From contig QPGO01000188.1 of assembly GCA_008632985.1 (NCBI GenBank), forward strand, positions 1 to 64,000: a stretch of DNA of 64,000 nucleotides, written 5' to 3'. The notes beneath the pieces are model-generated. The model was not told the DNA's origin. It saw only the letters and a list, made by a program, of their open reading frames with translations, and ran no database searches. This document shows positions 1,064 to 60,187 of this stretch, in pieces. Position 1 is the first letter of the stretch, and the number at the start of each line of letters is the position of its first letter. This DNA comes from Psammoneis japonica. Its lineage: Eukaryota. The translations under genes were made by a program, and so were the position numbers.

Positions 1064-1800
1064 CATTCAGTTGCTTGTTTTGGGTGTTGCTTGCAGTCAC
1101 GCTGTCAGTCACAACATGTGAAAACGATGCTTGACTGATTCGATGTGTGTGGTGACTTGTCCTGAGTTCGACTGTGGATGAGAAATGGGTGCGGGTGCGC
1201 ATCGATTTGGCATGGTCTGTCCTTCAACCGTGGCCACTTGGCATCGATCAGGTGGGGTCTGTCATTCAACCGGAAGCGTTTCCCACCACCTCACAACCCA
1301 AACCCAAACCCTCCCATCCCAAATGCACCACACACAATGACATTTGACAATTCCACGTTCCAGATTCCAGTCTGATTTTGAAGTCAAAATGGGTCCAAGG
1401 CTGGTCCCAAAATGACATTTCCACACACCTGTTCCCCCATCAGTTTGCAGTCGAAATGGGTTCAACGTTGGTCCCATGTGGACACATGAGTTTCCATTTG
1501 TTTGTCAAATCTGGATTTCAATGGAGAATTTCGGAGCACACGTTGTCAAATGGGGCCAATGGCAGCTCCATTTCGGCCTTCTAATTGTGACACAGAACAT
1601 TTTCAATTGGTTGTTCGACTGTTTTGCCTGTCAACATGGGTCCAACAGTGGACCCATTTGACCATGTCGGGTTGCTGGACTGACGTTTTTGTTTCAACAT
1701 CTTGTGTTTCTGTTTTAGTCAGTTGGGTTTGACTTGCGACAATCATTGCCTCGAAGTCTTCATTGGGAAAGAACCAAAGTGCGGCAATTTGGTTGGAACT

Positions 1801-6851: not shown

Positions 6852-8190
6852 GTGGAATGGACCATTGGGGCACATTCGCCCCAGTCGTTGCATGGAGTGC
6901 GGTGTGACTGACATTGTGTCTGGCGGCAATCGCCGGTCTGAAAAGCAGACAAGTGGATCATGCGCAAGCATTTCCACAAGCAGAGCTGGAAGAACCAGCA
7001 TGTGTGAGACTCCCAGAAGGGCGGGAAGTGAAAGACGAAAATGGAAACATCATGCCAGACATGGCATGCAAACTGAAAAAGAACTCATGCGGCACAAAAA
7101 CTGCTGCACGAAACTGGTTCCAGAAACTGTCAAAGGGGCTGGAACGACGCAGTTTCAAAAAATCAAAAATGGACCCATGTCTGTTCATCAGAAATGACTG
7201 CATCATCTGCTTGCACACAGATGGTTGTTTGGTTTTTGCTCCAAAGAACTGCATTGTCGCTGCACTCATGCAAGAACTCAAGCAAGACGAGCTTCAACTT
7301 GCCGACGAAGGTGATGCACCCGCTTTCCTCAGTGTGGATGTGGCCAATGCCGTCGATGGCAAAATCCACATGACCCAGACAGGTCTTGTTGATTCCGCGT
7401 TGAAAGACCTTGGTCTGAGGTCCCACAACAATGAACCATTGCAGAGCAGGCCACAAACAAAGGCTGCTCCAGCAGCGCAAATGCTGCACCCTGACACAGA
7501 CGGTCAGGAGCATCAAGAACTGTGGAGCTGCCGGTCTGTTGTCGGAAAGATGAGCTCTCTGGCACAAATGACTCGACCAGACATTGCAGTGGCAGCGCAC
7601 ATGTGCACCAGATTTTTCAACTGCCCAAAGGCATTGCACGAACGAGCAGTTGAGCGCATCGGACGTCATCTGCTGGCAACTTCAACAGATGGCATTGAGC
7701 TCCGGCTGAAAGGGAAATTCTCCCTGGGCGCATGTGTTGACAGCGACTTCGCGGGAATGTGGTGCAGAAATTTTGCCCATCTCCACGAATCGCACCTGTC
7801 ATGATCAGGGTGTGTTGTCACATTCGCAGGCTGTCCAATCTGTTGGAAGAGCAAATTGCAAACCGAGACAGCTCTCTCCTCAACCGAGGCTGAACTCGTT
7901 GCACTGTCGCAGTGCCTGAGAGAGCCACTTCCAATGAGAACTGTGCCAGAAGAACTGTCCAAAACCATGGGTTTTGAGCTGGCAAATTCACACATTGAAT
8001 CTGGTTCTCTGGAAACTCGTGTGCTTCCACACAAGCTTCCCCCGTCCACAGCGCATGAAGACAAAACAGGGTGCACTGCACTGGCCACCTCTGACGAGCA
8101 ATGCAGAGCCAGAGCCAAGCACACAACCATCAAATGGATGCACTTTTGGGACCACACAAAACGTGGTTCTGTGAAGAAGGCAGTGAAAGT
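6852..8190 (+). pseudogene. pol: Ty1/copia reverse transcriptase-RNase H fragment
   Basis: TFAPVVAW, QVDHAQAFPQAEL, SKMDPCLF, ICLHTDG (YxDD), TRPDIA, CVDSDFAG, QTETALSSTEAE. Confidence 0.92.
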
Positions 8191-8423
8191 TGGCGACACA
8201 TTGAGCAGTCCAAACAGACTGCTGCTTCACTCAAAAACAGCATTTTTGGATGTGTGCAAACAGCATTTTTTGCTTCGCTTGTCCTCGAAGCACGAGGGAG
8301 AGAAACACCCTGGACACACCCCAGACATTTTCTGGGAATGCTCTGGAGGCTGTGCGCAGATGTTGCTGCATCGGCTTGGCTCCATTGCTGGCATTGGTCA
8401 GAGCCCTCGTCGACACGAGGGAG

Positions 8424-8593
8424 TGTCACGTTCAGCTGGAGCTCGCAGGACAGACGGACGGACGGACGGATGGACAGATGGAGCTCATTCGCACGGACTC
8501 AGAGAGATGATGTCGAAGATTCTCTGACGCAGCTGGCTCATGGACCACAGAACAGTCGCGAGCCTCTTTGGCTCACAACATCCACACAAGACA
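8424..8593 (+). mobile_element. Copia LTR (duplicated 3' LTR, 170 bp)
   Basis: TGTC...GACA termini, preceded by polypurine tract GAGGGAG. Matches 20241-20410 and 11434-11603. Confidence 0.9.
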
Positions 8594-11433
8594 CCCTTTG
8601 TGATTTGGTGCCCTCAACAGACATTTTTTGTCCTTTTTGATTTTGTGCCCTTGGCCATTTTGCTGGTCACGACAGAGCTGCAGAACAACAAGAACCTGCC
8701 CGATGAAGAGCGCGGGGCAAAGGAGAGAAAGTGCGTGAGGTGCCAGAAGCACTTCACGGCAGGGAGCTCCAAGAATGGAGATGCGGAAGGGAGCGCACCC
8801 AGGAAACGCAAGAGGGAGGATTTTTGCAGGAAGATTGTGGCAGAGCGTGACAGGAAAGTGGAGGAGGGGGGCAATGGGCTGGGGGATGAGGAAAGCCACG
8901 TGGCGGGTTGCGCTGAGACACACGAGCTGGAGCCAGCACCTGTTTGGCAGACAATGTGTGAAAAGTGGCAGTCATGTTTGTTGCAAATGACGTTGCAGGC
9001 ACAATCCAAATTGAGCGACTGCACTCCACGGCGCCAGCTGGAGAGCAACTGGGGAAGGGCACAACACGGGTGGTGCCTTGGGAAACCAGTCAGCCGATCT
9101 GTTGTCAGTCAGCTGTTGATTGTGTTTGAGTGGGTGCGCCGGAGTTTTTGGCCTGCTCGCTTTCCACGTGGCCTGGAACAACCCAAATCTGTGCAGACTC
9201 AGCACGCTTTGCCCTGCAGAACAGTTTTTGGGAGCGTTCTCTGGCTCGCGGCTCAAAACGACACGTGAAATGTCGCATTTTCGCATTTTCGCATTTTCGC
9301 ATTTTCGCATTTTCGCATTTTCGCATTTTCGCATTTTCACTGGTGGTCTTCAAATCAAGAACAACCTCGCCACGTGTTGCAGGAGGGCACTGAAGGGACA
9401 CAGCCCACTGGCAGGGCGCTGATCAAACAAGATTTGCGGCGCAAGTGTTTGGCGCTGGGGGCGCCTTTGAGGTTTTGTGCCCTCAGCCATGTTGCGCAAT
9501 TCTTGATTTTGTGCCCTTGACTTTTTTGTGCCCTTGGCTGCTTTGCGCCCTTTCCTTTTTTTGTGCCCTCGAGCACTTTGCCCCATCTCGTGGTTTTGTG
9601 CCCTTGGCCATTTTGCGCCCTTTGTGACTTTGTGCCCTTGCCCACTTTGTGCCTTTTTTGGCTTTGGGCCCTCAGCCGCATTTGGCGCCCCTCATGATTT
9701 TGTGCCTTCAGCAATTTTTGGCCATTGTGGCTTTGTGCCCTTTGCCGCCTTGGACCCTTTCTGATTTTTTGCCCTTGGCAGCTTTGTGCCCTCAGCCGCC
9801 ATTTTGCGCCCTCAGCCATTTTGTGGCCTCAGCCGCTTTGTGCCCCTGCCTGGTTTGTGCTCTTTGTGATTTGGCGCCCTCGACAGACATTTTTTGTCCT
9901 TTTTGATTTTGTGCCCTTGGCCATTTTGCTGGTCACAACAGAGTTGCAGAACAGCAAGAACCTGCCCGATGAAGAACACGGGGCAAAGGAGAGAAAGTGC
10001 ACGAGGTGCCTGAAGCACTTCACAGCAGGGAGCTCCAAGAATGGAGATGCGGAAGGGAGCGCACCCAGGAAACGCAAGAGGGAGGATTTTTGCAGGAAGA
10101 TTGTGGCAGAGCGTGACAGGAAAGTGGAGGAGGGGGGCAGTGGGTTGGGGGATGAGGAAAGCCATGTGGGGGGTTGGACCCAGACACATGAGCTGGAGCC
10201 AACACCTGTTTGGCAGACAATGTGTGAAAAGTGGCAGTCACCTTTGTTGCAAATGACGTTGCAGGCACAACCCAAATTGAGTGACTGTGCTCCACGGTGC
10301 CAGCCGGAGAGCAGCCGGGGAAGGGCGCGACACAAGCGGCACTTTGGGAAGCCAGCCAACCGATCTGTTGTCAGTCAGTTGTCGAATGTGTTTGAGTGGG
10401 TGCGCCGGAGTTTTTGGCCCGCTCACTTTCTGCGTGGCCTGGTGCAACCCAAATCTGTGTGGACTCAGCACGCTTTGCCCTGCAGAACAGTTTTTGGGAG
10501 TGTTCTCTGGCTCGCGGCTCAAAATGATGCGCAAAATGGCGCGGACAATGGGTGCGGTGGCGCGCCTGTTTGTCCGTTTTCTGTCCTTCAACAGTGGATG
10601 TAAATCAGACACGGCAGTGCATCCATTTGTCCGTTTTCTGTCCTTCAACAACAGACGCAGTTTAGATGCCGTGGTGTGTCCATTTCGCCTTTTCTGGCCT
10701 TCAACAGGAGACACAAAGCAGATCGGAAGGTGTGCCGACATCTCAAAATCTGTTGAGCAGATCCGGAGTTGTGTCGACATCTCTGAATCTGTCAAGAGTG
10801 TGCGAGGTCGGCTGGGCACTTTTGCTCTTCCTGGTTTGTTGCCATTGGCCACTTTGTGCCCTTTGTGCCTTTTTGCCTTTTGCGCTGCCCTTGGCCAATT
10901 TGTGCCCTTTGCAACTTTGTGCCCTCAGCTGCCATTTTGCACTCTCACTCCGTTCAGTGATTTTTTTGTGCCCCAGGAAAGTTTGTGCCCTTTGTGATTT
11001 TGTGCCCTCAACTCCCATTTTTTGTCATTTTTTGTTTTGCGCCCTTGGCCATTTTGCACCTTTGAGATTTTGTGCCATCAGTCATGTTGCGCAACTCTTG
11101 ATTTTGTGCCCTTGACCTTTTTGTGCCCTTGGCTGTTTTGTGCCCTTTCCTTTTTTTGTGCCCTTGAGCATCGTGTGCTTTTCATGGTTTTGTGCCCTTG
11201 GCCATTTTGCGCCCTTTGTGACTTTGTGCCCTTGTCCATTTTGCACCTTTTTTGGTTTTGGGCCCTCAGCCGCATGTGGCGCCCCTCGCGACATTGTGGT
11301 TTTGTGCCCTTTGCCATTTTGGACCCTTTGTGATTTTTTGCCCTTGGCAGCTTTGTGCCCTCAGCCACCATTTTGCACCCTCAGTCATTTTGTGACCTCA
11401 GCAATTTTGTGCCCCTGCCTGGTTTGTGCCCTT
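8594..11433. repeat. Modular macro-repeat: (CGCATTTT)n, TTTTGTGCCCTT-rich array and a GA-rich module
   Basis: The same modules recur in the same orientation at about 20411-25060, 37705-38050, 38685-41792 and 45490-47570. (CGCATTTT)n lies at 9274-9338. Confidence 0.85.
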
Positions 11434-11603
11434 TGTCACGGTCAGCCAGAGCTTGCAGGACAGACAGACAGATGGGCGGATGGACAGATGGAGCTCACTC
11501 GCACTGGCCAAGAGAGATGATGTCGAAGATTCTCTGACGTGGCCAGCTCATAGACCACAGAATGGTCACAAGCCTCTTTGGCTCACAATGTCTGCACAAG
11601 ACA
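11434..11603 (+). mobile_element. Copia 5' LTR
   Basis: TGTC...GACA termini. Followed by a PBS-like motif resembling GGTTATGGGCCC. Confidence 0.9.
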
Positions 11604-11664
11604 GGTTGTGTGGCCCTCGTTGCCTCTGCAACCTTTTTGACAACAAACACCGCCAACACCCGCC

Positions 11665-12060
11665 GATGGGTTCCAGCCCCAGGTGGGACTTTTTGTGACA
11701 TTGGGCCCGCAGAATTCTGCGTGTGAGCTCTGCAGTAAAATCATCAATGTGTGAATGTGTGGATGATCGCCAACAGAAAAAGAGGCAATTTTGCGAACGC
11801 ATCTCCTCCTCCACACTTGAAGCACATTCTTTGTGGCATGCCCGGGTGTGTTCTTTGGACATCAAAGAACATGCCCAGCACATTTTTGTTGACATGAGTG
11901 CAGATGACAGAAAGCCTTTGGCTTCGCAAAACAGGCAGTGTGGAACAATTTTTTACAACAGAACACTTGGAAATGTGCGCGCGAAACGTGCGACGGATGA
12001 CAAAAAACAATTGAGTCACAGTTCAGCAGTGCGAGGTCCCACCCAGAGCTGGAACACGTC
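11665..12060 (+). mobile_element. MITE, subfamily A (396 bp), in the copia 5' leader
   Basis: Imperfect TIRs GA(C/T)GGGTTCCAG..CAGGTGGGAC and GTCCCACC..G.GCTGGAACACGTC. TSD CGCC/CACC. Confidence 0.88.
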
Positions 12061-12067
12061 CACCACC

Positions 12068-15000
12068 ATGGCACCATCCTCCAGCACCAAACGCACTGGC
12101 AAGTCCAAATCGGGCAAGGGCTCTTCTGAATCGCAGAAGCCCAGCGCCGCCGCGACACCCTCACCATCTCATGGAGCGCGTCCCTCGAAAGAAGGGCGGG
12201 AAAGTCGACACGGCTCTCAATGAACTCATCAAACATGCGCCCAAAAAGGCACCGCATGATGACGATGTCGACCGTCAGAACCCTGACGGCAATGCACTTG
12301 AGGACGATGACATGCATGACAACGACGGCATCGCAAAACTCACGTCAGTGACGAACTTGGACGACATGGATGTTTCTGACGACGACAGTGTCTCGTCTGA
12401 CAAGTCCAACAAGTCCAGTGCAGAAACCCGCCGCAAGCGCACCAAAAAGCACTTGTCCAAGCGCAAGCGCGAGAGGCTTGCCACCCACATTGACAAAGTT
12501 GCTGCGGCTGCATGTGCTGACAAGCGCATTGCACAACTGGCCAAACTGCTAGAAGGCAAATTGACTGTGTCCCCTGAGTCATTCTTTGACTTCCTCTTTT
12601 GTCTTGAGGAACGTCTTCAGAGCTCCCCTGTGTGGGCTAAAGTCATGAAGCTCAACAACGGCATGTCTTTGACAAAAGACTTCACCAAAGTGGTGCTGTG
12701 GGGTGTTGAAACCGACGAGGTCATCGCCAAGAAATCCGATGACCAGACACACATGCATTTCGCGCAACGTGCGCTCAAGGCCCTGCTTGTTGCCTCGCAT
12801 GACAAAGAGCTGCGTCGGGCAATTGCATCTGATGAAAATGTCATGGATCATCTCCACAAGGATGGCGCAATGTGCTTCTGCCATGGCTTCAAGCAGCTGT
12901 TCCCGTTGCCCGAGATGCACGTCAATGGCGTCCAGACAAAATTGTCCAAAGTTTCTCTCATTGACGATTGCGACGGCAATGTCAGCACATTTTTGCATGA
13001 GTTCAGGCAGCACCTCCGCCTGGTTCACAAGCGTGACAACATGCTTGAGTGCACTCTCGTCGAGAAAGCCTTCAAAGAACTCCAAACTGCCACATGCAAG
13101 CCATTCGCAGCCAAGATGGCCCAGCATGAGACCAATTGGATGCGCAAGAAACACGTCAAATGGACTGTCGAGACCCTGTTCGAGGAAGCCAACAGCCTCC
13201 AGACGGCACTTGAGGCACAGAATCTTTGGGACAAACCTTCCACGGAAGAAACCCAGTTCATGGCCATGCTGGCTCAGAACGAACAGCTCGTCAACTTCGC
13301 GCAGCAGATGACAAAGGTCGCCTCTGCTTTCCAGTCATCCCTGCAGCAGAGGTCGCGGTGCAAGCATCGCAACAACCGTTGCAACCGCCACGACAACCGC
13401 CGGGGACATCAGGGTCATGGTGGTTGCAGAAACGGTCGTGACCGCGCACCTCGCTGTGGTTCCCCTCCATTCTTGTGCATTGAACCCGAGAACAAAGAAA
13501 CGGAAAAGGAGTGGGGCAACAAGAAGTTTCATTGGCGTGATGCATGCAAGATGCACTCCACTCGCCACAGCACCGGCACCCACAACGAATGCATTGCCTC
13601 CAACAACAACAAGAGCGGCAAGCATCCTGGAAATGCACAACCCAAGTCTGGATGTGACCACAAGCGCCAGCTCAGAACGAACAGCTCGTCAACTTCGCGC
13701 AGCAGATGACAAAGGTCACCTCTGCTTTCCAGTCATCCCTGCAGCAGAGGTCGCGGTGCAAGCATCGCAACAACCGTTGCAACCGCCACGACAACCGCCG
13801 GGGACATCAGGGTCATGGTGGTTGCAGAAACGGTCGTGACCGCGCACCTCGCCGTGGTTCCCCTCCATTCTTGTGCATTGAACCCGAGAACAAAGAAACG
13901 GAAAAGGAGTGCGACATGGACGTTTCTGATGACAGTGTCTCGTCTGACAAGTCCAACAAGTCCAGTGCGGAAACCCGCCGCAAGCACACCAAAAAGCACT
14001 TGTCCAAGCGCAAGCGCGAGAGGCTTGCCACCCACATTGACAAAGTCGCTGCGGCTGCATGTGCTGACAAGCGCATTGCACAACTGGCCAAACTGCTAGA
14101 AGACAAATTGACTGTGTCCCCTGAGTCATTCTTTGACTTCGTCTTTTGTCTTGAGGAACGTCTTCAGAGCTCCCCTGTGTGGGCTAAAGTCATGAAGCTC
14201 AACAACGGCATGTCTTTGACAAAAGACTTGACCAAAGTGGTGCTGTGGGGTGTTGAAACCGACGAGGTCATCGCCAAGAAATCCGATGACCAGACACACA
14301 TGCATTTCGCGCAACGTGCGCTCAAGGCCCTGCTTGTTGCCTTGCATGACAAAGAGCTGCATCAGGCAATTGCATCTGACGAAAATGTCATGGATCATCT
14401 CCACAAGGACGGCACAAAGTGCTTCTGCCATGGCTTCAAGCAGCTGTTCTCGTTGCCCGAGATGCGCGTCAATGGCATCCAGACAAAATTGTCCAAAGTT
14501 TCTCTCATTGACAATTGCGATGGCAATGTCAGCACATTTGTGCATGAGTTCAGGCAGCACCTCCGCCTGGTTCACAAGCATGGCAACATGCTCAAGTGCA
14601 CTCTCATCAAGAAAGCCTTCAACGAACTCCAAACCGCCACATGCAAGCCATTCGCAGCCAAGATGGCCCAGCATGAGACCAATTGGATGCGCAAGAAACA
14701 CGTTAAATGGACTGTCGAGACCCTGTTCAAGGAAGCCAACAGCCTCCAGACGGCACTTGAGGCACAGAATCTTTGGGACAAACCTTCCACGGAAGAAACC
14801 CAGTTCATGGCCATGCTGGCTCAGAACGAACAGCTCGTCAACTTTGCGCAGCAGATGACAAAGGTCGCCTCTGCTTTCCAGTCATCCCTGCAGCAGAGTT
14901 TGCGGTGCAAGCATCGCAACAACCGTTGCAACCGCCGTGACAACTGCCGGGGACATCAGGGTCATGGTGGTTGCGGAAACGGTCATGACCGCGCACCTCG

Positions 15001-15585
15001 CCGTGGTTCCCCTCCGTTCTTGTACATTGAACACTAGAACAAAGAAACGGAAAAGGAGTGGGGCAACAAGAAGTGGCGCTGGTGTGATGCATGCAAGATG
15101 CACTCCACTCGCCACAGCACCGGCACCCACAACGAATGCATTGCCTCCAACAACAACAAGAGCGGCAAGCGTCCTGGAAACGCACAACCCAAGTCTGGAT
15201 GTGACCACAAGCGCCAGCTCAGAATGAACAGCTCGTCAACTTCGCGCAGCAGATGACAAAGGTCGCCTCTGCTTTCCAGTCATCCCTGCAGCAGAGTTCG
15301 TGGTGTGAGCATCGCAACAACCATTGCAACCACCATGACAACCGCCGGGGACATCAGGGTCGTGGTGGTTGCGGAAACGGTCGTGACTGCACACCTCGCC
15401 GTGGTTCCCCTCTGTTCTTGCACATTGAACCCGAGAACAAAGAAACGGAAAAGGAGTGGGGCAACAAGAAGTGGCATTGGTGTGATGCATGCAAGATGCA
15501 CTCCACTCGCCACAGCACCGGCACCCATGACGAATGCATTGCCTCCAACAACAACAAGAGCGGCAAGCGTCCTGGAGACGCGCAA
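12068..15585 (+). pseudogene. gag: Copia gag-like region with internal tandem duplications
   Basis: ATG at 12068, then a frameshift into ORF 12171-13709. Cys/His motif WCDACKMHSTRH. 12362-13669 is repeated at 13912-15216, and the 3' part (from 13272) again at 13670-13911 and 15217-15585. Confidence 0.75.
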
Positions 15586-18500
15586 TTAAAGTCTCCTTAA
15601 AGGGTGTTGCATCTGGCCCAGCCATTGAGGGCGTTGGCACGGTGAGATGCGGCTTTGTGGATGACGGTGGCAACAATTTTGCCATTGATGTCAACAATGT
15701 GCTGTGTGCACCCACCTGCCTGGTTCGTCTGCTGTGCCCTCAACAAGTGGCAGCTGCAAGCCCCAATGAGGACACAGATGGGTTCTTTGCAAGGGGCAAG
15801 TCCACGACAATGATCTGTGGACAACATCGCAAAACCGTGCGATGCCATCACGAGTCGAATCTGCCGATTCTTGCTGCGGCTCCAGGCTTTGGCAATTTTT
15901 GAGCTTTCTGCTTTGACACTGATGCAAATGGCAAACTGCCACCTTGCACCAACACAAAGGCATGCTCGGCTTTGCATCCGGCTTTTGCTGTCACAACAAG
16001 AAAGCAAAAGGCGGTGGCCAACACAAACAAACAACAGACTTCTGACAATCAGCAGAGCAAAAAGTCAAACGAAAATGAAAAGAAACCAAGGCCTGCTCAG
16101 CCTCAACAGGACCTGCCAGTCCATGAGGGGGGCACAGAAGACAACCTGCTTCCCATCCAATGCAACATGTTGAAATTGCACCATCGCATGGGACACGTTG
16201 GTTTTGAACAAATCAAAGAATGGGCCAAGATCGGTGCCGTGCCGAAACTCTTTGCAAAATGCGAAGCTCCAGTCTGCAAAGCATGTGCTTGTGCAAAAGC
16301 CAAGTGCAAGGCAGCTCAGCGTGGCCACCGCATTGATGAATGCCATGACAATGCTCCAGGTCAAGGAGTGTCTGCGTGCAGCATGCATGCAGACAAAAGG
16401 TCATTTTTGTCATGCCCTTTGTGACATTTAAAGGCTGCAGCACGTCGCCATGATGCATTGACTCTCATTGGCAGCTGCACGTTGCACTCCTCCCCATGTG
16501 CCGCACGTCCATGCGGCTCTTTGCTGACGTGTGCTGACACTGCACGGTTTTGGTGGAACAGTGTGGGTGCGTGCGAAGGAACATGCAGAACTGCACAGAG
16601 TTTTGCGCGTTCGACAGTGATCAACGTTGCTGCGGACAACTCCCACTCAGGGTTTCGAACCCCTGGCCTCCTGCCCAATGGTTGCGATGAACCACTCCAC
16701 CATGAATTCACAATGCAGTGTGCATGCAGACAAAAGGTCATTTTTGTCATGCCCTTTGTGACATTTGAAGGCTGCAGCACGTTGCCGTGATGCATCAACT
16801 CTTGTTGGTGGCTGTGTGTTGCACGCGGATCAACTCGATGCGAGTCATCCGGGCCCACTTCCCACTTCTCGTGGCAAACCAACTGCTTGCAGGTGCAAAC
16901 ATTGCACTCTGTGGATTGATCACTTCTCTGGATTTATCCATCCTCACATGCAAGAGTCCACTGGGGGAAAAGAGACCTTGACTGGCAAAACCAAGCTCGA
17001 GAGATTCACAGCAAAACACAATGTAAAAATCAAGCACACTCATGCCAATGACGGCACATTCGCCACCGCAGAGTTCACACAACACTGCGTTGAAAACAAA
17101 CAACGAAACTCCTTTTGTGGAGCAGGAGCACACTGGCAAAACGGCATCTTGGAACGCTGCACAGGCATCATCACCTCGATGGCACGAACACACCTGTCAC
17201 ATGCTCAGCCCCTCTGGTCTGATGCAGCAACCACGGAATTGTGGCCATTTGCCATCAGACAAGCTGTCAATTTCCACAATGTGTGCGTCCAAAAAGGAAA
17301 AGAGAAAAACCCCTGGGAGCTGTTCACTGACAAGAAACCGCCATTTCAAATGGACGATTTTTGCGTGTGGGGGTGTCCTGTTTACATCGCGGACAAAAGT
17401 GTCCAAGGCGGGACTCACATTGGAAGATGGGCCGAACGGTCATGTGCACGTGGGACATTCGCTGGACCATGCCAGCAATGTCCATTTGGCATGGTGCCCC
17501 ACAACCAAACACGTCTCGCCACAATTTCATGTCACATTTGACAAAAACTTTGCAACAGCAGTGCCTGGAAAGACATCAAGCAATGATCTTGAGGCAGCTC
17601 TTGAAAAATCATTTGATGACCATGCAAACACTTAGACTCACCATGATGAACATTTCGACCACAATCAATGTTGTTTTGAAAAGAATGTTTGGAGCAAGGA
17701 CGACTTGCTCCGCGAACACAGTGTTGACCCTCAAGCGTGCAAACAGGTGCAAAAGACCAACCACAAATCACCAGGGAGAAAAAGAGACCGTGCTGGACAA
17801 GAAAAGCCAGACAATGACGACACACCATCTGAGATTCTGCCAGCTGTTGATGTCTCGGCCGACACACCGACACATGCGGCAGCTGCACTGGCAGACACGA
17901 CAATGCCAGCAGAATTGGCACATGCTGAAGCCTCCGAGGCTGTGCCACCTGCAGCGGGAGGTTCTGTGTCGGAGAGAGCAGAGGGGACCCACTCATTGTC
18001 AAACCGACCACTGTTGGTTGACAATGCAACACCGTTGATTGCAGACAATGCAGTCACCCAGGGCCCAACTGTGGCAACTCCAGAGGACGCTGCAACTTCT
18101 TCGCCAATGAAAGAAGCCCTCCAACATTCAAACAATGAAGCAGACTGTGCTTGCCATCAACTTCATGAGTGCAAATGCCGAAAAGGTTTGGATGACGATG
18201 CGACTTGCACAACAGCACAGAACAATGCAAAAAACAGCAACTCACCTGACATGAATGCGCACATCACAACACCTCTGTGCCACAAAGAAGTTGCAGCTGA
18301 ACCACACGAAGAGCTTGCACATCTGATGGCACTCGTGGGTTCAGCAGACAATGACATGCTTCTTGACGAAGACACATGGAACGAATCCAGTCCACTCGCT
18401 TTCGAAGCAGCGGCGCCAGGTGACGTCGACACCCTGACCCAGGGCCAGATGAAAAGAGCGCCAGACCACGCCAAATTTGAAAAAGCCCAAGTTCCAGAAA

Positions 18501-20010
18501 CACAAGGGCTGGCAGATGTGGATGCATGGGAACACATGCCACGTTCTGAAGTGCCAAAAGACCACTGGTTGTCAAGTGCAATCTGGTCACACAAAAGAAA
18601 AAGGAAACCAAGTGGTGAGCTTTCAAAACACAAAGCCAGAATGTGTGTCGACGGTTCCAAACAACAACGTGGAATGGACCATTGGGGCACATTCGCCCCA
18701 GTCGTTGCATGGAGTGCGGTGTGACTGACATTGTGTCTGGCGGCAATCGCCGGTCTGAAAAGCAGACAAGTGGATCATGCGCAAGCATTTCCACAAGCAG
18801 AGCTGGAAGAACCAGCATGTGTGAGACTCCCAGAAGGGCGGGAAGTGAAAGACGAAAATGGAAACATCATGCCAGACATGGCATGCAAACTGAAAAAGAA
18901 CTCACGCAGCACAAAAACTGCTGCACGAAACTGGTTCCAGAAACTGTCAAAGGGGCTGGAACGACGCAGTTTCAAAAAATCAAAAATGGACCCATGTCTG
19001 TTCATCAGAAATGACTGCATCATCTGCTTGCACACAGATGATTGTTTGGTTTTTGCTCCAACGAACTACATTGTCACTGTGCTCATGCAAGAACTCAAGC
19101 AAGACGAGCTTCAACTTGCCGACGAAGGCAATGCACCCGCTTTCCTCAGTGTGGATGTTGCCAATGCCGTCGACGGCAAAATCCACATGACCCAGACAGG
19201 TCTTGTTGATTCCACGTTGAAAGACCTCGGTCTGAGGTCCCACAACAATGAACCATTGCAGAACAGGCCACAAACAAAGGCTGCTCCAGCAGCACAAATG
19301 CTGCACCCTGACACAGATGGTCAGGAGCGTCAAGAACTGTGGAGCTGCCGGTCTGTTGTCGGAAAGATGAGCTCTCTGGCACAAATGACTCGACCAGACA
19401 TTGCAGTGGCAGCGCATGTGTGCACCAGATTTTTCAACTGCCCAAAGGCATTGCACGAACGAGCAGTTGAGTGCATCGGACGTCATCTGCTGGCAACTTC
19501 AACAGATGGCATTGAGCTCCGGCTGAAAGGGAAATTCTCCCTGGGTGCATGTGTTGACAGCGACTTCGCGGGAATGTGGCACAGAAATTTTGCCCATCTC
19601 CACGAATCGCACCTGTCATGATCAGGGTGTGTTGTCACATTCGCAGGCTGTCCAATCTGTTGGAAGAGCAAATTGCAAACCGAGACAGCTCTCTCCTCAA
19701 CCAAGGCTGAACTCGTTGCACTGTCACAGTGCCTGAGAGAGCCACTTCCAATGAGAACTGTGCCAGAAGAACTGTCCAAAACCATGGATTTTGAACTGGC
19801 AAATTCACACATTGAATCTGGTTCTCTGGAAACTCATGTGCTTCCACACAAGCTTCCCCCGTCCACAGCGCATGAAGACAAAACAGGGTGCACTGCACTG
19901 GCCACCTCTGACAAGCAATGCAAGGCCAGAGCCAAGCACACAAGCATCAAATGAATGCACTTTCGGGACCACACAAAACGTGGTTCTGTGAAGAAGGCAG
20001 TGAAAGTGGG
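15586..20010 (+). pseudogene. pol: Copia pol: partial protease, integrase, RT and RNase H, with frameshifts and stops
   Basis: IEGVGTV..VLCAP..RLLCPQQ. HHRMGH..CKAC (HHCC). SADQL (split by the TRIM), WIDHFS, HWQNGILER, LWPFA. WSHKRKR..KHKARMC, ICLHTDD, CVDSDFAG. Confidence 0.92.
16377..16823 (-). mobile_element. TRIM-like miniature LTR element (447 bp) inserted in the integrase
   Basis: 110-bp direct repeats at 16377-16486 and 16714-16823 with TG...CA ends. Minus-strand PPT GGGGAGGAG at 16487-16495. 4-bp TSD TGCG/CGCG. Removing it restores PGQGVSADQL. Confidence 0.85.
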
Positions 20011-20240
20011 CGACACATTGAGCAGTCCAAACAGACTGCTGCTTCACTCAAAAACAGCATTTTTGGACATGTGCAAACAGCATTTTTCGCTTCACTTGTC
20101 CTCGAAGCACGAGGGAGAGAAACACCCTAGACACACCCCAGACATTTTCTGGGAATGCTCTGGAGGCTGTGCGCAGATGTTGCTGCATCGGCTTGGCTCC
20201 CTTGCTGGCATTGGTCAGAGCCCTCGTCGACACGAGGGAG

Positions 20241-20410
20241 TGTCACGTTCAGCTGGAGCTCGCAGGACAGATGGACAGACGGACGGATGGACAGACGGAG
20301 CTCATTCGCACTGACTCAGAGAGATGATGTCGAAGATTCTCTGACGCAGCTGGCTCGTGGACCACAGAACAGTCGCAAGCCTCTTTGGCTCACAACATCC
20401 ACACAAGACA
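20241..20410 (+). mobile_element. Copia 3' LTR
   Basis: Follows the PPT, has TGTC...GACA termini and is followed by TSD CCCTT. Confidence 0.92.
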
Positions 20411-22536
20411 CCCTTTGTGATTTGGTGCCCTCAACAGACATTTTTTGTCCTTTTTGATTTTGTGCCCTTGGCCATTTTGCTGGTCACGACAGAGCTGCAG
20501 AACAACAAGAACCTGCCCGATGAAGAGCGCGGGGCAAAGGAGAGAAAGTGCGTGAGATGCCTGAAGCACTTCACGGCAGGGAGCTCCAAGAACGGAGATG
20601 CGGAAGGGAGCGCACCCAGGAAATGCAAGAGGGAGGATTTTTGCAGGAAGATTGTGGCAGAGCGTGACAGGAAAGTGGAGGAGGGGGGCAATGGGCTGGG
20701 GGATGAGGAAAGCCACGTGGTGGGTTGCGCTGAGACACACGAGCTGGAGCCAACACCTGTTTGGCAGACAATGTGTGAAAAGTGGCAGTCATGTTTGTTG
20801 CAAATGACGTTGCAGGCACAATCTAAATTGAGCGACTGCACTCCACGGTGCCAGCTGGAGAGCAAATGGGGAAGGGCACAACACGGGTGGTGCCTTGGGA
20901 AACCAGTTGGCCGATCTGTTGTCAGTCAGCTGTTGAATGTGTTTGAGTGGGTGCGCCGGAGTTTTTGGCCCGCTCGCTTTCCACGTGGCCTGGAACAACC
21001 CAAATCTGTGCAAACTCAGCACGCTTTGCCCTGCAGAACAGTTTTTGGGAGCGTTCTCTGGCTCGCGGCTCAAAATGACACGCAAAATGGCACGGACAAT
21101 GGCGTTTTGCCAAGTTGAAAAATGCGATTGTCTCTGAGGTCGGAACCTGGATGCTCTCAACAGAACTCGGTGCATTGTGTCATCTTGTGCGAGATGAGCT
21201 CGAGAGCACCCAGGTTCACATGGGCGGACTGTGGCGAAAATTCTTGCTGAAGGCTCGCACTGACAACGTCGCTTCTGTTGCTTTGCGACCAAGACACGCT
21301 GCCATTCGTGCTGTGTGTTTTGTCGAGGCTTCATGTGTTTGCAGCCGCTCAATTTGTTGAATGTGTTTGAGTGGGTCCGCCGGAGTTTTTGGCCGGCTCA
21401 CTTTCCACGTGGCCTGGAACAACCCAAATCTGTGCAGATTCAGCGCGTTTTGCCCTGCAGAGCAGTTTTTGGGAGTGCTCTCTGGCTCGTGGCTCAAAAT
21501 GACACGCAAAATGGCGCGGACAATGGCGTTTTGCCAAATTGAAAAATGCGGTCATCTCTGAGGTCGGAACCTGGATGCTCTCAATGGAGCTCGGCGCTGT
21601 CACATCATCTTCTGTGAGACATGCTCAAGAACATCCAGGCTCACATGGGCAGATCATGGCGAAAATTCTTGCCGAAGGTTTGCACTGACAACATCGCTTC
21701 TGTTGCATCACAACCAACCTCATGTGCTGCCATTTGTGCTGTGTGTTTTGTTGAGGCTTCACATGTTTGCAGCCGTTCAATTTGCGCGCAGCTTCTCTTT
21801 CTACATTGTTCTTTTGTTTGCCCTGCAGGACAATTTTTTGGGAGTGTTTTCTGGCTCTGCGGCTCAAAACAACACGCAAAACAGCGCGGACAATGGCGTT
21901 TTGCCAAGTTGAAAAATGCGATCGTCTCTGAGGTCGGAACCTGGACACTCTCAATGGAATTTGGCGCGTCTTTTGTTTGCCCTGCAGGGCAATTTTTTGG
22001 GAGTGTTTTCTGGCTCTGCGGCTCAAAACAACACGCAAGACAGCACGGACAATGGCGCTTCGCCAAGTTGAAAAATGCGATGGTCTCTGAGGTCGGAACC
22101 TGGGCACTCTCAACGGAATTTGGTGCGTCACATCACTCGCATTTTTCGCATTTTCGCATTTTCGCATTTTCGCATTTTCGCATTTTCGCATTTTCGCATT
22201 TTCGCATTTTCACATTTTCACATTTTCGCATTTTCGCATTTTCGCTGGTGGTCTTCAAATCAAGAACAACCTCGCCACGTGTTGCAGGGGGGCACTGAAG
22301 GGACACAGCCCACTGGCAGGGCGCTGATCAAACAAGATTTGCGGCGCAAGTGTTTGGCGCTGGGGGCGCCTTTGAGATTTTGCGCCCTCAGCCATGTTGC
22401 GCAATTCTTGATTTTGTGCCCTTGACCTTTTTGTGCCCTTGGCTGTTTTGCGCCCTTTCCTTTTTTTGTGCCCTCGAGCACTTTGCCCCATCTCGTGGTT
22501 TTGTGCCCTTGGCCATTTTGCGCCCTTTGTGACTTT

Positions 22537-26600: not shown

Positions 26601-29219
26601 AAGACTGGCCAGACAGAAAGGCACACCCGTGCGCTCTCGAGCTCTCAAACTTTGTTTCAAGAAAAACGCGTTGAAAAGAATTTTGACCAACCACAAACAT
26701 TTCAAGTGTGCACATGCAAGACATTGCAGGTCATTCTGATGCTTTGCAGACAGCATTGCGCAATGTTCGCACTCCTGTCTGTAAGAAGCCCATTTGCTTC
26801 GGCAGTTTTCTTTTTCTCAGCGTTCCGTGCCTTCTGCTCGTCGCTCTCTGACTGCTTTTGCTTCCACTTCTCTCTCTTGCTTTTTGCAACTTGATTGAGC
26901 ACGTCGTCTCCAGGATGAGGGCACATCTTGTCTTTGTCTTCCTTGTCCAGAAGCGGCCGACACTTTGTGCGAAGCTCCACCTTCTTGATGTCCTTGATTC
27001 CTGGAGCTGTCAAGGCATGTGGTCTTGTTGTTTGAAGTCTTGCTTTCCCATCATCCATTGATTCACTCTTCCTCTTTTTGAGATCCTCGCTAACTTCTGG
27101 CTCGCCGTCCGCTGCTTTCATTGTCGCCACTGTGGGACTCAAAGAGTCTTTCACTTCAAAGCAGTGGTGCTTCGTAGCTGCACTGCACTTCTTGCAATTC
27201 TGATCAAAATGAGCTCCATGTCCCAAAAAATGCTCCTCCTTTGCTTCAACAACAGCGACATGCTCAGAAGCATCCAATGCTTTCAACAGTTTGCTGAAGG
27301 CGCCAATGTTCTTGTCGCAGTGAGTTTGCTTGAGACTGTTGAAGAGTCTGTCAAATGCATTCTTGGTGTGCCCTTTCACTGAAAACATGATGCAAACTTC
27401 TTTGCAATGTCCTTGTTCCACCAGGTGGGAAGCAAGTCTCAAAACAGTGTTGCTCTTGTTTTGCCTGACACAGTTGTCAAAAATCAGCACAAGCTTTCCG
27501 CCTGGACCCTTTTCAACATCCAACAACCCACCATCGTGCAAGTGTTTCATTGTGAGGGATGCAACATTGTCGCCTCCCTTTTGGCCAGCGCCCTTGTGGC
27601 AGACGCACGCGTGCAACAAATCCTTGCACTCACTTTCCGTCTCCTTTTTCCCGGCAGGATCCGCCACTCCAAAGAAATTGACAGTCAAAGGTGAGGAGCA
27701 GTGCGTCTCCCCTGGCTGATCGGCTCCAAGATGAGGCAACCCCCCATTTTGACAACAGCCACCAATCCTCACTCGAGTCTGCTGACTGTGTGGCGTGTTT
27801 GCAATTGCGTGTTGCACCGCTTCCACAGTGTGCTTGCTGGCTGGTTGTCGTTGCTTTTGGGCCCACTCGACATGTTCAGCCGCTTCCAGCATCTCTTTTT
27901 CCTGGGCCTCAATCTCTGCCATGCGTTCCTCATTGTCATCTTCATCATTGTCTTTGTTGTCACTCTCACCACCCTCATTTTCTTTCTCCTTTCTTGCTTT
28001 CATTTTGAAGCCATTCACGAATTTGCAACAGTCATCGCAGATGTCCCAAGTTGGTCTTCTCGCAACGATGTTGGGATGCTTGTCCTTCCAAAAAGTGCAA
28101 AGCTGTGCCCAGGAGCATGTCTTTTGTTGGGTTTTACCTGCAATTGGCGCGGGTTTGAGAAATTTGCCACGGTCGTTTGACTCAAGCCTCCGTCCATTGT
28201 CGTCTCCACATTGTTTGTGCAATCCGTGCTTTTTTGTGGTGGGAGGCAAATCGAACGTGTCTTCATCTCTCAAGCCGACTCCTGTTTCTTCTCTGACCAG
28301 TCTTGTTGCATGTGGTTCTGAAAGCTCTTTTGTTTCCTCAAAGAACGAATGCATCGCCGTGCAAATTTCGGGTGCCAACGTCTTGTTGGCAGATTGACCT
28401 TTCCCACCTTTGAGACCATGTGATGGAAGCATGTTGTTCTCTGCATGAGACTTTGCTCTCTTCCAAAACTTGCAGTTTTTGCCGAGTGATGCAAGGAGAG
28501 CATGGGAGCAGATGAGACTGTTCTCGACAGTCGCTGTGTCCTCGTTGTCAGATTGTAACAGCAGCAACACAAAACAGCAACAGTCGCCACTGTGTTTCTT
28601 GACAAAACAAGAGCACTTGATCCAGGATGACAAAGCAGTGTAAGTTTCTTTGTAGCTTGGTCTTTCAAAGCACACCAGGCAGTTGCCAAGCATCTTTGCG
28701 GTTCGGACGTCGTTGCTCTCCATCAACTGCAATCTCAGCTTCTTCAGACAGCTGCATTTCGATGGTTTCTTTTTGTTCACATCAGCGCAATGCTCATGAA
28801 ATGTTGGTGAATCATCAGGACTTGAAAGCCAATCACAGAACATTTTTGCAGCTTTGTTGTCCTTGATGTCTTTCATTGGTTTCGGCCGGATTTTTTCAAA
28901 AGAGAGATGAGCAAAGGATTTCAAAATTGAACTGAGAACAAAGGCATTAAGAAAGAACACACTTTCACATTCAATTGAGATGCAAACACACATTCGAGTG
29001 CAGCTGCATGATTTTCTCCACACATGAATTCCCGCCAAGCTTCAACGGTCAAAACCATCACAATGAAATCATTTGACCATCATCATTGTCAATGGCTTGC
29101 AGTTCGTTTAGAAACACTCAAAAGCGGAGATCAAGAGCTTTCAATTGGTGTCCACACCTGAAAATCAACCATGCAAGCCATTTCGAGCTCTGGGTGTGCC
29201 TTTCTGTCTGGCCATTCTC
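26601..29219 (-). mobile_element. Sola-type (probably Sola2-like) DNA transposon
   Basis: 28-bp TIRs AAGACTGGCCAGACAGAAAGGCACACCC and GGGTGTGCCTTTCTGTCTGGCCATTCTC. 4-bp TSD ACAC/ACAT inside the satellite. Encodes a transposase. Confidence 0.85.
26702..28876 (-). pseudogene. Sola-like DDD transposase: open frame but hypermutated
   Basis: DICDDC, QPGETHCSSPL, KGGDNVASL, IFDNCVRQNKSN, FSVKGHTKNAFDRLF. These match the DNCxGQN and GHx4DRxF pattern of Sola transposases. Confidence 0.8.
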
Positions 29220-38355: not shown

Positions 38356-39575
38356 GTGATGAAGCCAGGTCAAGCAAAATGGCTTCTGTGGCATGTCAAC
38401 AAAAGCGCGCATGGCATGGGAATGGCGTGTTGCGGGAGAGAGGTTGACGTGCTCACCCAACATGCTGTGACCTCCAACACACAGAGCCGAGGATGAGCAC
38501 ATCATGGGGGACAAACGGGCTTCCCCATGATGCAGAGACGGATTTCACCGATTTGTCCCCTCACATGCTGCATCTTGGCTTTTTTGTAAAATGCAACAAT
38601 GACAACGTGAGGGCAGCTGCGACAACAACTTGAGTCACAAGGGTGGCACAACTGCTGCCGCTGCCACCGCCATTTTTCCATTCATGATTTTGTGCCCTTG
38701 ACCACTTTGCACTTTTGCTCTTCCTGGTTTTTTGCCATTGGCCACTTTGTGCCCTTTGTGCCTTTTGCACTGCCCTTGGCCAATTTGTGCCCTTTGCAAC
38801 TTTGTGCCCTCAGCTGCCCTTTTGCACTCTCACACCATTCAGTGATTTTTTTTGTGCCCCAGGAAAGTTTGCACCCTTTGTGATTTTGTGCTCAACTCCC
38901 ATTTTTTGTCATTTTTGGTTTTGTGCCCTTGGCCATTTTGCACCTTTGAGATTTTGTGCCCTCAGTCATGTTGCGCAATTCTTGATTTTGTGCCCTTGAC
39001 CTTTTTGTGCCCTTGGCTGTTTTGTGCCCTTTCCTTTTTTTGTGCCCTTGAGCATTTTGTGCTTTTCATGGTTTTGTGCCCTTGGCCATTTTGCGCCCTT
39101 TGTGGCTTTGTGCCCTTGGCCATTTTGTGCCTTTTTTGGTTTTGGGCCCTCAGCCGCATTTGGTGCCCCTCATGATTTTGTGCCTTCAGCAATTTTTGGC
39201 CATTGTGGTTTTGCGCCCTTTGCCATTTTGGACCCTTTCTGATTTTTTGCCCTTGGCAGCTTTGAGCCCTCAGCCACCATTTTGCACCCTCAGTCATTTT
39301 GTGACCTCAGCAATTTTGTGCCCCTGCCTGGTTTGTGCCCTTTGTGATTTGGTGCCCTCAACAGACATTTTTTGTCCTTTTTGATTTTGTGCCCTTGGCC
39401 ATTTTGCTGGTCACAGCAGAGCTGCAGAACAACAAGAACCTGCCCGATGAAGAACGTGGAGCAAAGGAGAGAAAGTGCATGAGATGCCTGGGGCACTTCA
39501 TGGCAGGGAACTCCAAGAACGGAGATGCGGAAGGGAGCGCACCCAGGAAACGCAAGAGGGAGGATTTTTGCAGGA

Positions 39576-39835
39576 GGCCTGTTCCAGCTCCAGGTGCTCT
39601 GCTTTTCATCACGCGAGAGGCCGATTTTCTGCGCAGTTCAGCACAATTGACTCCTTCAATTTTGATCGTTTCGAAAATCGAAAGGTGAGTGTACACCCAA
39701 AAATGCGTTCCAAGGGCACACTCACCCTTCGATTTGGCAAAAAACGGATTTGGAAAAAGCCAATTGCGCCAAATGCACAAATTTCCAAATGATGGGAATC
39801 GAACCCGCGCGGAGCACCTGGAGCTGGAACAGGCC
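39576..39835. mobile_element. 260-bp MITE with perfect 24-bp TIRs
   Basis: GGCCTGTTCCAGCTCCAGGTGCTC and GAGCACCTGGAGCTGGAACAGGCC. TSD AGGA. The empty site GCAGGAAGATTG is present in other repeat copies. Confidence 0.92.
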
Positions 39836-53756: not shown

Positions 53757-53868
53757 CTTCCATTTTTCGTCGGACCTCTGGATGTCGGCCTTTCTCCTTT
53801 CAACCGAACCTCAAGTTAATGCAGTGCTCTAAGCCTCAGTCTTCTCTTCGGAGGAGCACGGCCCAACC

Positions 53869-59800: not shown

Positions 59801-59900
59801 CTTTAAATCGAGCATGCGGGAAGCCAAACGGTTGGCTGCACGAGGCACCAGAACCATTGCAAGTTACTTTGGCACGGCATCACCCTCGGGTGATGCCGAT
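53869..59900 (+). pseudogene. LINE ORF2: AP endonuclease, RT, RNase H and zinc knuckle
   Basis: APE: FNANG, IGISEV, GNFN, LDHVL, SDHR. RT: DCTSCCDR, GQGSGNSP, GCVDD. RNase H: SDGS, SSCRAEACG, HCDN, WVKGHQD, NMRADRLA. Knuckle: CTHC..DHILRC. Stop at 55888-55890 and a frameshifting duplication. Confidence 0.92.
57476..57767 (+). repeat. 146-bp tandem duplication in LINE ORF2
   Basis: 57476-57621 and 57622-57767 are nearly identical. Confidence 0.92.
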
Positions 59901-60187
59901 CTTGGCCAATTGCCATTTGCTCCTGCCGCACTGACTGTGTGCTGGGAGTGTGGGTTAGCTTGTTGCCGGAGTTGCAGGGTGGAAGTGCAGCAGCACTTAA
60001 AATGTGGAAGTTTGGTTTTGTTTTGTTTTGGTCTCAGTCATGTGGAGCTCCCGCAGCCCTTCGAGGGTCTCATGCTGAGAGTCGCGTTTCCTGATGCATG
60101 CTTCTGCGGGATCAGCGTCACTGTGGACAGCCTGCAGATGCAGGAAAGCAGCATCATCGGCGGCTGCGGCAGGGATGCCTGCTGCAG

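Follow-up and report, generated by a model that had tools for sequence, protein, structure and literature searches.

The 64,000-nucleotide stretch of DNA that we analysed (the window) carries, at positions 11434-20410, a single Ty1/copia insertion, which is a dead copy. It has direct LTRs of the form TG..CA, a 5-bp target-site duplication, the order gag, protease, integrase, reverse transcriptase (RT) and RNase H, with integrase upstream of RT, and the Pfam domains gag_pre-integrs (at about 16.2 kb) and RVT_2, the copia-type RT (18.5-19.3 kb). By tblastn, its internal region is colinear with residues 135-1448 of P0002, the closest intact copia polyprotein. This copy differs from Ty1/copia elements generally in its frameshifts, a 1.55-kb tandem duplication, a nested insertion and the lack of Tyr codons at conserved sites. 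The features of the locus and its relatives in the window are as follows.

6852..9272, + strand: later segmental duplicate of 18669-21089, 97.3% identical
11429..11433, + strand: 5' target-site duplication CCCTT; the same pentamer follows the 3' LTR and occurs once in the empty paralogous site
11434..11603, + strand: 5' LTR (LTR5), 170 bp, TG..CA, with 1 TA and 5 CG
11604..20240, + strand: degenerate Ty1/copia internal region with the domain order given above, frameshifted, Tyr codons almost all gone
12362..15458, + strand: internal tandem duplication of the gag region; its two units measure about 1.55 kb each and are 95.4% identical
16362..16824, no strand assigned: nested stretch of about 460 bp of a very high-copy short element
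20241..20410, + strand: 3' LTR (LTR3), 170 bp, with 0 TA and 10 CG; opposite state to LTR5 at 7 of 7 swap sites
20411..20415, + strand: 3' target-site duplication CCCTT
39338..39342 (about), + strand: paralogous empty site, where a further copy of the flanking repeat has CCCTT only once

Both LTRs belong to one insertion, since CCCTT is found at both ends and the paralogous empty site has only one CCCTT: 10816-11436 matches 38709-39345 and 20411-20648 matches 39338-39575, the same flanks being joined there with no element between them. A purine-rich run, GAGGGAG, lies immediately 5' of the 3' LTR, and no tRNA was matched to the stretch after the 5' LTR. The nested stretch is absent from other copies of the family, where contigs of run X1 join 16361 to 16825 and 16368 to 16824; its word depth in that run is about 6e4-1e5 versus a few hundred elsewhere, and an Rfam search with it gave no match. 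The segmental duplicate covers the 3' part of the element, 680 bp of flank and an LTR copy (8424-8593) that is 96.5% identical to LTR3 and shows no CA/TG swap against it.

The two LTRs align without gaps and are identical at 144 of 170 positions (84.7%). Of their 26 differences, 24 are transitions and 2 are transversions; seven dinucleotides that read CA in one LTR and TG in the other account for 14 of the differences, with CA in LTR5 at 11447, 11465 and 11544 and TG at 11540, 11563, 11589 and 11593. The four pairs of LTR sequences quoted in the first-pass annotation are all present and contain six of these swaps (11447, 11540, 11544, 11563, 11589 and 11593); the seventh, at 11465/20272, lies outside that list. 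The mirror-image control, AC/GT swaps between the LTRs, gave none, and random placement of 24 transitions and 2 transversions on LTR5 yielded 0.69 swaps on average, with 0 of 200,000 trials reaching seven and a maximum of six, attained once. Outside the swaps there are six CpG or TA singles (5 CG/YR and 1 TA/TG) and six ordinary substitutions; five CG/CG sites and no TA/TA site are kept in both LTRs. All five CG/YR singles have CG in LTR3 (5 CG in LTR5, 10 in LTR3), an asymmetry that we counted against the explanation preferred below.

The loss of TA extends over the whole window, where this dinucleotide occurs 212 times (0.33%; observed/expected ratio, O/E, 0.052), with O/E values of 1.59 for CA, 1.54 for TG and 0.64 for CG. 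TA O/E is at or below 0.17 in all 32 bins of 2 kb. The element itself holds 19 TA (O/E 0.038), the satellites, described as non-transcribed, are TA-free too, and a LINE-like element at 52.5-60.4 kb is in a less-converted state (O/E 0.154). A scan of 32 long ORFs in the window outside the copia element yielded no recognisable host gene. The coding consequence is most apparent at Tyr, which has a median frequency of 3.39% in the 110 homologues found. Conservation in at least 70% of the homologues, with 10 or more homologues present, defines 401 columns; the 16 Tyr columns among them retain no Tyr and have instead 6 Cys (TGY), 6 His (CAY), 2 Phe, 1 Arg and 1 Leu; other conserved columns are kept, with Trp at 13/13, Cys at 13/14, His at 13/14, Phe at 14/16 and Gly at 36/41. 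Similarly, the 42 Tyr residues of P0002 align to 16 His, 16 Cys, 2 Arg, 2 Phe, 1 Leu, 4 gaps and a single Tyr. The even division between His and Cys in both comparisons (16:16 and 6:6) is that of a process acting on both strands, and the outcomes are not significantly clustered by strand (17 runs versus 19.4 expected, P=0.26).

Other copies of the family were read from X1 contigs, of which 1342 were placed on 15460-20430. This run contains just 0.61 of the sampled words, and it may be the assembly's own sample and is therefore not independent proof. The first-pass annotation had proposed reading the ancestral dinucleotide in such copies, and the one LTR swap site of seven that can be read among the 40 differences listed, 20351-20352 (CA in LTR5, TG in LTR3), proved to be TA and not CG: all three covering contigs have A at 20352, next to a T with no listed change. 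The ancestral state of the other six sites rests on statistics and analogy. Among the same 40 listed differences, 12 have TG or CA in the window where other copies read TA, including 20352 and 19418; at the latter, where the segmental duplicates differ by a CA/TG swap, TA is found in 4/4 covering contigs. Nine others oppose TG or CA in the window to CG in other copies, four have CG in the window versus CA or TG, and one, at 17634, has TA in the window versus TG in 9/9 covering contigs. The duplicates inside the window add a second comparison. The segmental pair shows 7 CA/TG swaps, 29 CG/YR, 3 TA/YR and 81 CG/CG sites, and a CpG-only model expects 1.30 oppositely resolved sites versus the 7 observed (tail 4e-4). 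The gag tandem pair shows 4 CA/TG swaps, 43 CG/YR, 2 TA/YR and 2 TA/TA.

Taken together, these observations make it very probable that the CA/TG swaps between the LTRs are ancestral TpA sites that were converted separately in each LTR after insertion, by a DNA-level process that has destroyed nearly all TpA in this region. The first-pass annotation had suggested an ancestral TA behind the CA/TG pairs, and this gains support from the loss of all 16 conserved Tyr, the window-wide TA O/E of 0.05, the TA at 20351-20352 and the failure of a CpG-only model to account for the seven swaps. A TA model with about 97% conversion accommodates the LTR data, i.e. seven swaps, one TA/TG single and no TA/TA.

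The same annotation had conceded that an ancestral CG could give these pairs, and that caveat holds in that CpG decay is active here. If the swap sites had been methylated CpG at integration, deamination of the top strand in one LTR (CG to TG) and of the bottom strand in the other (CG to CA) would leave the observed states. CpG is indeed hypermutable in this DNA, with CG to TG at 16 and CG to CA at 11 of 108 polarised sites (27/108), about ten times the rate of other transitions, and the five CG/YR singles between the LTRs, as well as the nine listed places where other copies have CG, are of the kind this route predicts. It also fully explains the swaps of the gag tandem pair (3.7 expected, 4 seen). 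It fails on the LTRs, however: with five CpGs left in both LTRs and five in one, decay is 0.33 per copy and only 0.62 swaps are expected versus seven (Poisson tail 4e-6). It also leaves the disappearance of Tyr codons and the TA O/E of 0.05 unaccounted for, and the sole readable LTR site is TA in other copies, so that we consider it improbable as the general origin of the swaps. About as improbable is the possibility that the sites were already CA or TG at integration and flipped in one LTR through a short-lived hypermutable intermediate (CA to TA to TG, or CA to CG to TG). Such flips do occur among polarised singletons (CA to TG at 6/404, TG to CA at 3/474), and the swap at 19580 between the segmental duplicates lies on a codon that is His, not Tyr, in 50/80 homologues, from which some swaps would start from CA or TG via an intermediate. 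At about 0.01 per site per lineage, though, some 30 shared or swapped CA/TG sites in two LTRs would yield about 0.6 flips, and this route and the CpG route together about 1.2 (Poisson tail for seven about 3e-4), which is sufficient for one or two swaps but not for seven. With CpG decay real and CA/TG flips at a frequency of about 0.01 per site, TA may thus not have been the state at integration for one or two of the seven swaps.

A strand-symmetric, window-wide pattern could also be produced by an assembly or base-calling artefact, in which a TpA with a modified base is miscalled, as CA from one strand and as TG from the other; the low word content of X1, and the places where all covering contigs differ from the window, would be in keeping with this. 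The contigs nevertheless weaken it to the point of being very unlikely: 274 of the 1342 match the window at 99% or more, and among these a 267-nt contig (19552-19818) spans former Tyr codons with a single difference, and X1 reads TA in other copies, which means that the method is able to read TA there. Moreover, disagreements run in both directions, as at 17634, and the 97.3% identical duplicates have the same outcome almost everywhere: random miscalling would give dozens of swaps over their 2.4 kb, and there are 7. Editing before integration, either of the RNA intermediate by an ADAR-like A-to-I activity or of the cDNA, has in its favour that ADAR prefers a 5' U, which fits UA to UG (as cited in 10.64898/2026.01.13.699255). 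Because a single template gives rise to both LTRs, such changes would be identical in the two, but seven sites are opposite; RNA editing would change only A to G on the sense strand, turning Tyr to Cys, whereas His (T to C) and Cys are equally frequent; and the non-transcribed satellites have lost TA as well. The argument of the first-pass annotation that the LTR pairs speak against editing of the RNA intermediate is therefore sound, as such editing would leave both LTRs of an insertion alike. The LTR asymmetry refutes it as the main cause, and we give pre-integration editing in any form almost no weight.

Returning to conversion of TpA after insertion, the direction of the change (TA to CA or TG), its strand symmetry, its timing after integration and its near-saturation are established by these data. 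The opposite LTR outcomes and the even His/Cys split place the change on integrated DNA and on both strands, and action on integrated DNA is seen at the seven opposite sites between the LTRs and at a further seven plus three half-resolved TA sites between later duplicates. The element would have integrated with identical LTRs of roughly 10-15 TpA each, after which nearly every TpA of the region would have become CpA or TpG, each by a single A:T to G:C transition that was about equally likely on the two strands. As each LTR was struck separately, the outcomes would be opposite at about half of the former TpA sites, giving the seven swaps, and alike, hence invisible, at the other half. The same process would have turned the Tyr codons of the element into His or Cys and removed TA from other mobile elements and the satellites around it, with ordinary CpG decay in parallel as the source of most CG/TG and CG/CA single differences. 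The chemistry is most likely adenine deamination at TpA in DNA (A to I, with I read as G), by a putative enzyme of the kind proposed in a preprint on Bigelowiella natans.

To our knowledge, a natural process that specifically changes TpA to CpA or TpG in chromosomal DNA had not been known before that preprint of 2026. Its text describes TpA-specific hypermutation of integrated viral DNA in B. natans, a marine alga, where mutation-accumulation lines had 231 mutations in two integrated viral regions, 230 of them A to G or T to C and all of these 230 on TpA, and where TpA-depleted CDS are enriched for reverse transcriptase and DDE endonuclease (Mettrop et al., bioRxiv 10.64898/2026.01.13.699255). 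The pattern seen here matches the one in that text: TpA to TpG and TpA to CpA on DNA, strand-symmetric, GC-increasing, acting on integrated foreign DNA and leaving TpA depletion with CpA and TpG enrichment. Our case is thus TpA hypermutation of the B. natans type acting on an LTR element, at saturation; the hypermutable regions of B. natans are still TpA-rich (3.3% and 9.2% of dinucleotides), whereas TA makes up 0.33% of our window over 64 kb. The words 'LTR', 'retrotransposon' and 'copia' do not occur in the text of the preprint, though its supplements, outside that count, might list such elements. The use of paired LTRs as a timing test of TpA hypermutation is new.

Fungal RIP is likewise a hypermutation of DNA by transitions at a specific dinucleotide, which disables mobile elements once they have integrated and distorts dinucleotide frequencies, but its direction is opposite: it converts CpA to TpA (C to T), enriching TA and lowering GC (also described in 10.64898/2026.01.13.699255), whereas here TA is destroyed and GC rises. 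The TpA excess and CpA/TpG deficit of RIP are not found, TA O/E being 0.05 and CA and TG about 1.55. Methyl-CpG decay, active in the window, likewise affects either strand of a palindromic dinucleotide and yields TG and CA, but starts from CG and not TA. ADAR or APOBEC editing before integration resembles the present case as deaminase-type hypermutation of retroelements, but its marks are strand-specific and the same in both LTRs, and APOBEC changes C to T or G to A; neither fits.

The insertion provides evidence separate from the preprint, from the DNA sequence alone, that the process acts after integration and on both strands, reaches mobile elements beyond integrated viruses and can come near to completion. 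We tentatively suggest, as a possibility that falls somewhat short of even likelihood, that it is a genome defence that is RIP-like but chemically opposite, i.e. a TpA-specific, adenine-targeting DNA hypermutation operating at saturation across whole repeat-rich regions and, long after integration, striking both strands of satellites and of LTR, LINE-like and short high-copy elements. The translation products of such DNA are without Tyr and rich in His and Cys. LTR-divergence dating, Kimura-distance repeat landscapes and homology-based annotation of transposable elements would be strongly biased in such genomes; the inflation of LTR dates that the first-pass annotation anticipated is evident here, where 14 of the 26 LTR differences belong to swaps, six more are CpG or TA singles and just 6/26 are ordinary substitutions. 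If the organism differs from the B. natans strain of the preprint, this would be the first sign of the system beyond that strain, and the paired LTRs and nested duplications would then serve as an internal clock for the rate of the process relative to CpG decay and ordinary substitution.

Our analysis supports the first-pass annotation's reading of the CA/TG pairs between the two LTRs of the element at 11434-20410, namely that they descend from an ancestral TA mutated independently, through the loss of Tyr codons in the element, the TA found at 20351-20352 in other copies of the family, and an excess of such pairs over what CpG decay predicts. Repeat finding and self-BLAST returned a gap-free direct repeat of 170 bp with 84.7% identity (LTR5, 11434-11603; LTR3, 20241-20410); both copies start with TG and end with CA, and CCCTT stands directly before LTR5 and directly after LTR3. 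The flanks are a multi-copy repeat, another copy of which (about 39338-39342) has both flanks contiguous around a single CCCTT, and this empty paralogous site marks 11434-20410 as a single insertion that duplicated 5 bp of its target. Its Pfam matches (gag_pre-integrase and RVT_2), together with 58% identity over RT to P0002, the closest intact copia polyprotein (1472 aa), residues 135-1448 of which align colinearly to the element over several frames, point to a dead Ty1/copia element, which also carries the marks of later events.

Features in and around the element
12362-15458: internal tandem duplication with a 1.55-kb unit, 95.4% identical; later change
16362-16824: nested stretch of about 460 bp, missing from other family copies; later change
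6852-9272: segmental duplicate of the element's 3' 1.7 kb, LTR3 and 680 bp of flank, 97.3% identical; later change
8424-8593: third LTR, within the segmental duplicate 6852-9272

The flanking repeat occurs at 10800-11433, 20411-21100, 38700-39600, 45600-47000 and other places and contains arrays whose 17-bp unit is TTTGTGCCC-like; its units have at least 4-5 copies in the window at 85-95% identity, and every copy is TA-free. In the public sequencing run whose contigs we aligned to the element (X1), contigs from other family copies join 16361 directly to 16825, and word depth rises from a few hundred in the copia element to about 6e4-1e5 in the nested stretch. This stretch, with 111-nt direct repeats (16377-16487 and 16714-16824) and a tRNA T-arm-like stretch near 16650, may be a SINE-like element; Rfam gave no match to it at E<=0.1. 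Between 16513 and 16605 there are at least seven places where other copies have TA and the window has TG, all on the same strand.

Of the 170 aligned LTR positions 26 differ, 24 by a transition and two by a transversion, and 14 of the 26 make up seven adjacent double transitions, every one of them CA in one LTR against TG in the other. The first-pass annotation gave six of these swaps correctly and overlooked the one at 11465/20272. The mirror-image pair, AC against GT, does not occur between the LTRs, and random placement of an equal number of changes gave a mean of 0.69 swaps, with none of 200,000 trials reaching seven. The remaining differences include five sites with CG against TG or CA and one with TA against TG. 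In all five of the former it is LTR3 that carries CG, and CG counts are five in LTR5, 10 in LTR3 and 12 in LTR3's duplicate; this asymmetry could reflect unequal CpG decay or A to G changes outside TpA. At 20357, three other contigs read CA, as does LTR5.

The direction of change can be read from the coding sequence, since Tyr codons begin with TA and homologues can therefore serve as an outgroup. P0002 has 42 Tyr residues in its alignment with the element; at these positions the element now reads His (CAY) 16 times, Cys (TGY) 16 times and Tyr once, the others being two Arg, two Phe, one Leu and four gaps. Taking 110 homologues and requiring at least 70% agreement among at least 10 of them gave 401 conserved codon columns, in which none of the 16 conserved Tyr is Tyr in the element (six Cys, six His, two Phe, one Arg and one Leu), while Trp is retained in 13/13, Cys in 13/14, His in 13/14, Phe in 14/16, Gly in 36/41 and Arg in 19/24. 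Loss of Tyr with retention of other residues indicates that TA went to CA and to TG in equal shares, and the homologues' median Tyr content of 3.39% makes this copy the outlier. Ile is retained in only 8/24 conserved columns (seven Val, six Thr), and conserved Val and conserved Thr have often become Ala, as expected if TA was lost within codons or across their boundaries. The His and Cys outcomes form 17 runs along the element against 19.4 expected (runs test, P=0.26), so that strand-clustered, processive conversion finds no support.

Other copies of the family give a second view of polarity. X1 contains 0.61 of the element's sampled words, and 1342 of its contigs could be placed on 15460-20430 at 80% likeness, 274 of them at >=99%, 348 at 95-99%, 482 at 90-95% and 238 below 90%, a spread that implies many diverged copies. 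Among the 40 differences from the window that were listed (of 40 + 797), 12 have TG or CA in the window and TA in other contigs, nine have window TG or CA against CG, four have window CG against TG or CA, one has window TA against TG, and 14 lie outside CA, TG, TA and CG dinucleotides. Two of the 12 TA rows bear decisively on the ancestral state. At 20352, all three covering contigs have A, and since the adjacent T has no listed change they read TA at 20351-20352, against CA in LTR5 and TG in LTR3; at 19418, TA stands in each of the four covering contigs, against TG in the element and CA in its 97.3% duplicate. The check proposed in the first-pass annotation, reading the ancestral dinucleotide in family copies, thus gave TA at the one of the seven swap sites that could be read. 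At several places, including 17633-17634, 19418 and 20352, no covering X1 contig agrees with the window, and the mismatches run both ways (TA in the window against TG in nine contigs at 17634); either the exact copy is absent from the contigs listed, or TpA-derived sites are not the same in the run as in the assembly. No metagenome match was found to a degenerate 28-nt LTR core, and the sole metagenome locus hit by a 19-nt conserved part of the LTR is a chance resemblance (GC 0.25, alike over only 19-24 nt). Protein searches giving 57 and 53 proteins contained no same-family copy, the best matches reaching 58% identity across the full query and 64% across half of it.

The same CA/TG pairs could in principle come from an ancestral CG, and CpG decay is active in the window: at 108 polarised CpG sites, those where at least three paralogues agree, CG went to TG 16 times and to CA 11 times, far above the reverse changes (TG to CG, 9/474; CA to CG, 6/404). 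It does not explain the LTR swaps. With five CpG kept in both LTRs and five in one, decay amounts to 0.33 in each copy, which predicts 0.62 opposite-resolved sites where seven are seen (tail 4e-6), and for the segmental duplicates the expectation is 1.30 against seven seen (tail 4e-4); the gag tandem pair alone, with four swaps where 3.7 are predicted, has no excess. CA can also turn into TG by way of a transient TA or CG; with a rate of about 0.01 per site this route would contribute about 0.6 swaps, and by our arithmetic the two routes together yield about 1.2, still leaving a tail near 3e-4. The seven swaps, the one half-resolved site and the absence of TA/TA sites fit a model in which about 97% of TA was converted. 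We conclude that most of the swap sites, perhaps five or six of the seven, were TpA at integration.

Changes in the RNA or cDNA would be identical in both LTRs, which are copied from one template; their opposite states thus place the changes on chromosomal DNA after integration, as the first-pass annotation had argued. The equal split between His and Cys means that both DNA strands were hit and is incompatible with editing of the sense-strand RNA. The chronology is consistent with a decay process: the oldest split, LTR5 from LTR3, has seven swaps in 170 bp, while the later 97.3% duplicates have seven swaps and three half-resolved TA sites over 2.4 kb, so that most TA had already been lost when they separated. 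A base-calling artefact at modified TpA is unlikely, given that 274 X1 contigs match the TA-free sequence at >=99%, that X1 itself reads TA in other family copies, that the duplicates agree in outcome at nearly all sites, and that run and window disagree in both directions; X1 may be the source sample, however, and so reduces the case for an artefact rather than closing it.

TA depletion extends across the whole window, which has 212 TA (O/E 0.052, with CA at 1.59, TG at 1.54 and CG at 0.64) and a TA O/E of at most 0.17 in every 2-kb bin. Pfam scans of 6 + 26 ORFs recognised no host gene in the window, the long ORFs giving only Exo_endo_phos (LINE-like), DUF7869 and, below threshold, an HA domain and coiled-coil hits; the window is composed of mobile elements and satellites. 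The open frames 26705-29041 (- strand; DUF7869; Tyr 2/779) and 1684-4176 (+ strand; Tyr 0/831), both with raised Cys and His, are probably other hypermutated mobile-element genes. The surviving TA are unevenly distributed over flanking contexts, those with a preceding A or following T being rarer than CTAA or TTAA (TA against CA/TG in the same context: ATAT 0 vs 693, ATAC 5 vs 1492, ATAG 8 vs 1221, ATAA 18 vs 1918, CTAA 52 vs 1374, TTAA 35 vs 1110), which may point to a preference of the process for certain flanking bases. The LINE-like element at 52.5-60.4 kb (52512-60416; Exo_endo_phos), which has 11 Tyr over three long ORFs, is less converted, with 71 TA left and an O/E of 0.154 against 0.038 for the copia element. 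It is probably the younger of the two, and TpA changes still in progress could well be sought there.

Among the matches listed in a literature search, judged by titles and abstract starts, only a preprint on Bigelowiella natans was relevant. It reports that two integrated viral regions in mutation-accumulation lines mutate about 1000x faster than the rest of the genome, with 230 of 231 mutations being A to G or T to C and all 230 on TpA; TpA-depleted CDS are enriched in reverse transcriptase and DDE endonuclease, and the enzyme proposed there is an ADAT2-like adenine deaminase that works on DNA (10.64898/2026.01.13.699255). The signature in the window is the same as the one described in the preprint, but the target here is an LTR retrotransposon, and the words 'LTR', 'retrotransposon' and 'copia' do not occur in the preprint text (10.64898/2026.01.13.699255). 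The window is also saturated over 64 kb, with 0.33% TA against 3.3% and 9.2% reported there for the active B. natans regions. Among well-known processes fungal RIP comes closest in logic, although its chemical direction is opposite. For the window, we infer an enzyme behind the TpA change and a rule for its targeting.

The window thus provides a new case of a type of hypermutation that was described only very recently; it adds the proof, from a single insertion, that the change follows integration, and a gauge of how the process compares with CpG decay. The inflation of LTR dating foreseen in the first-pass annotation is borne out: ordinary substitutions account for only six of the 26 differences between the LTRs, so that dating by LTR divergence overstates the age of this element several-fold, a practical warning for LTR dating at such insertions.
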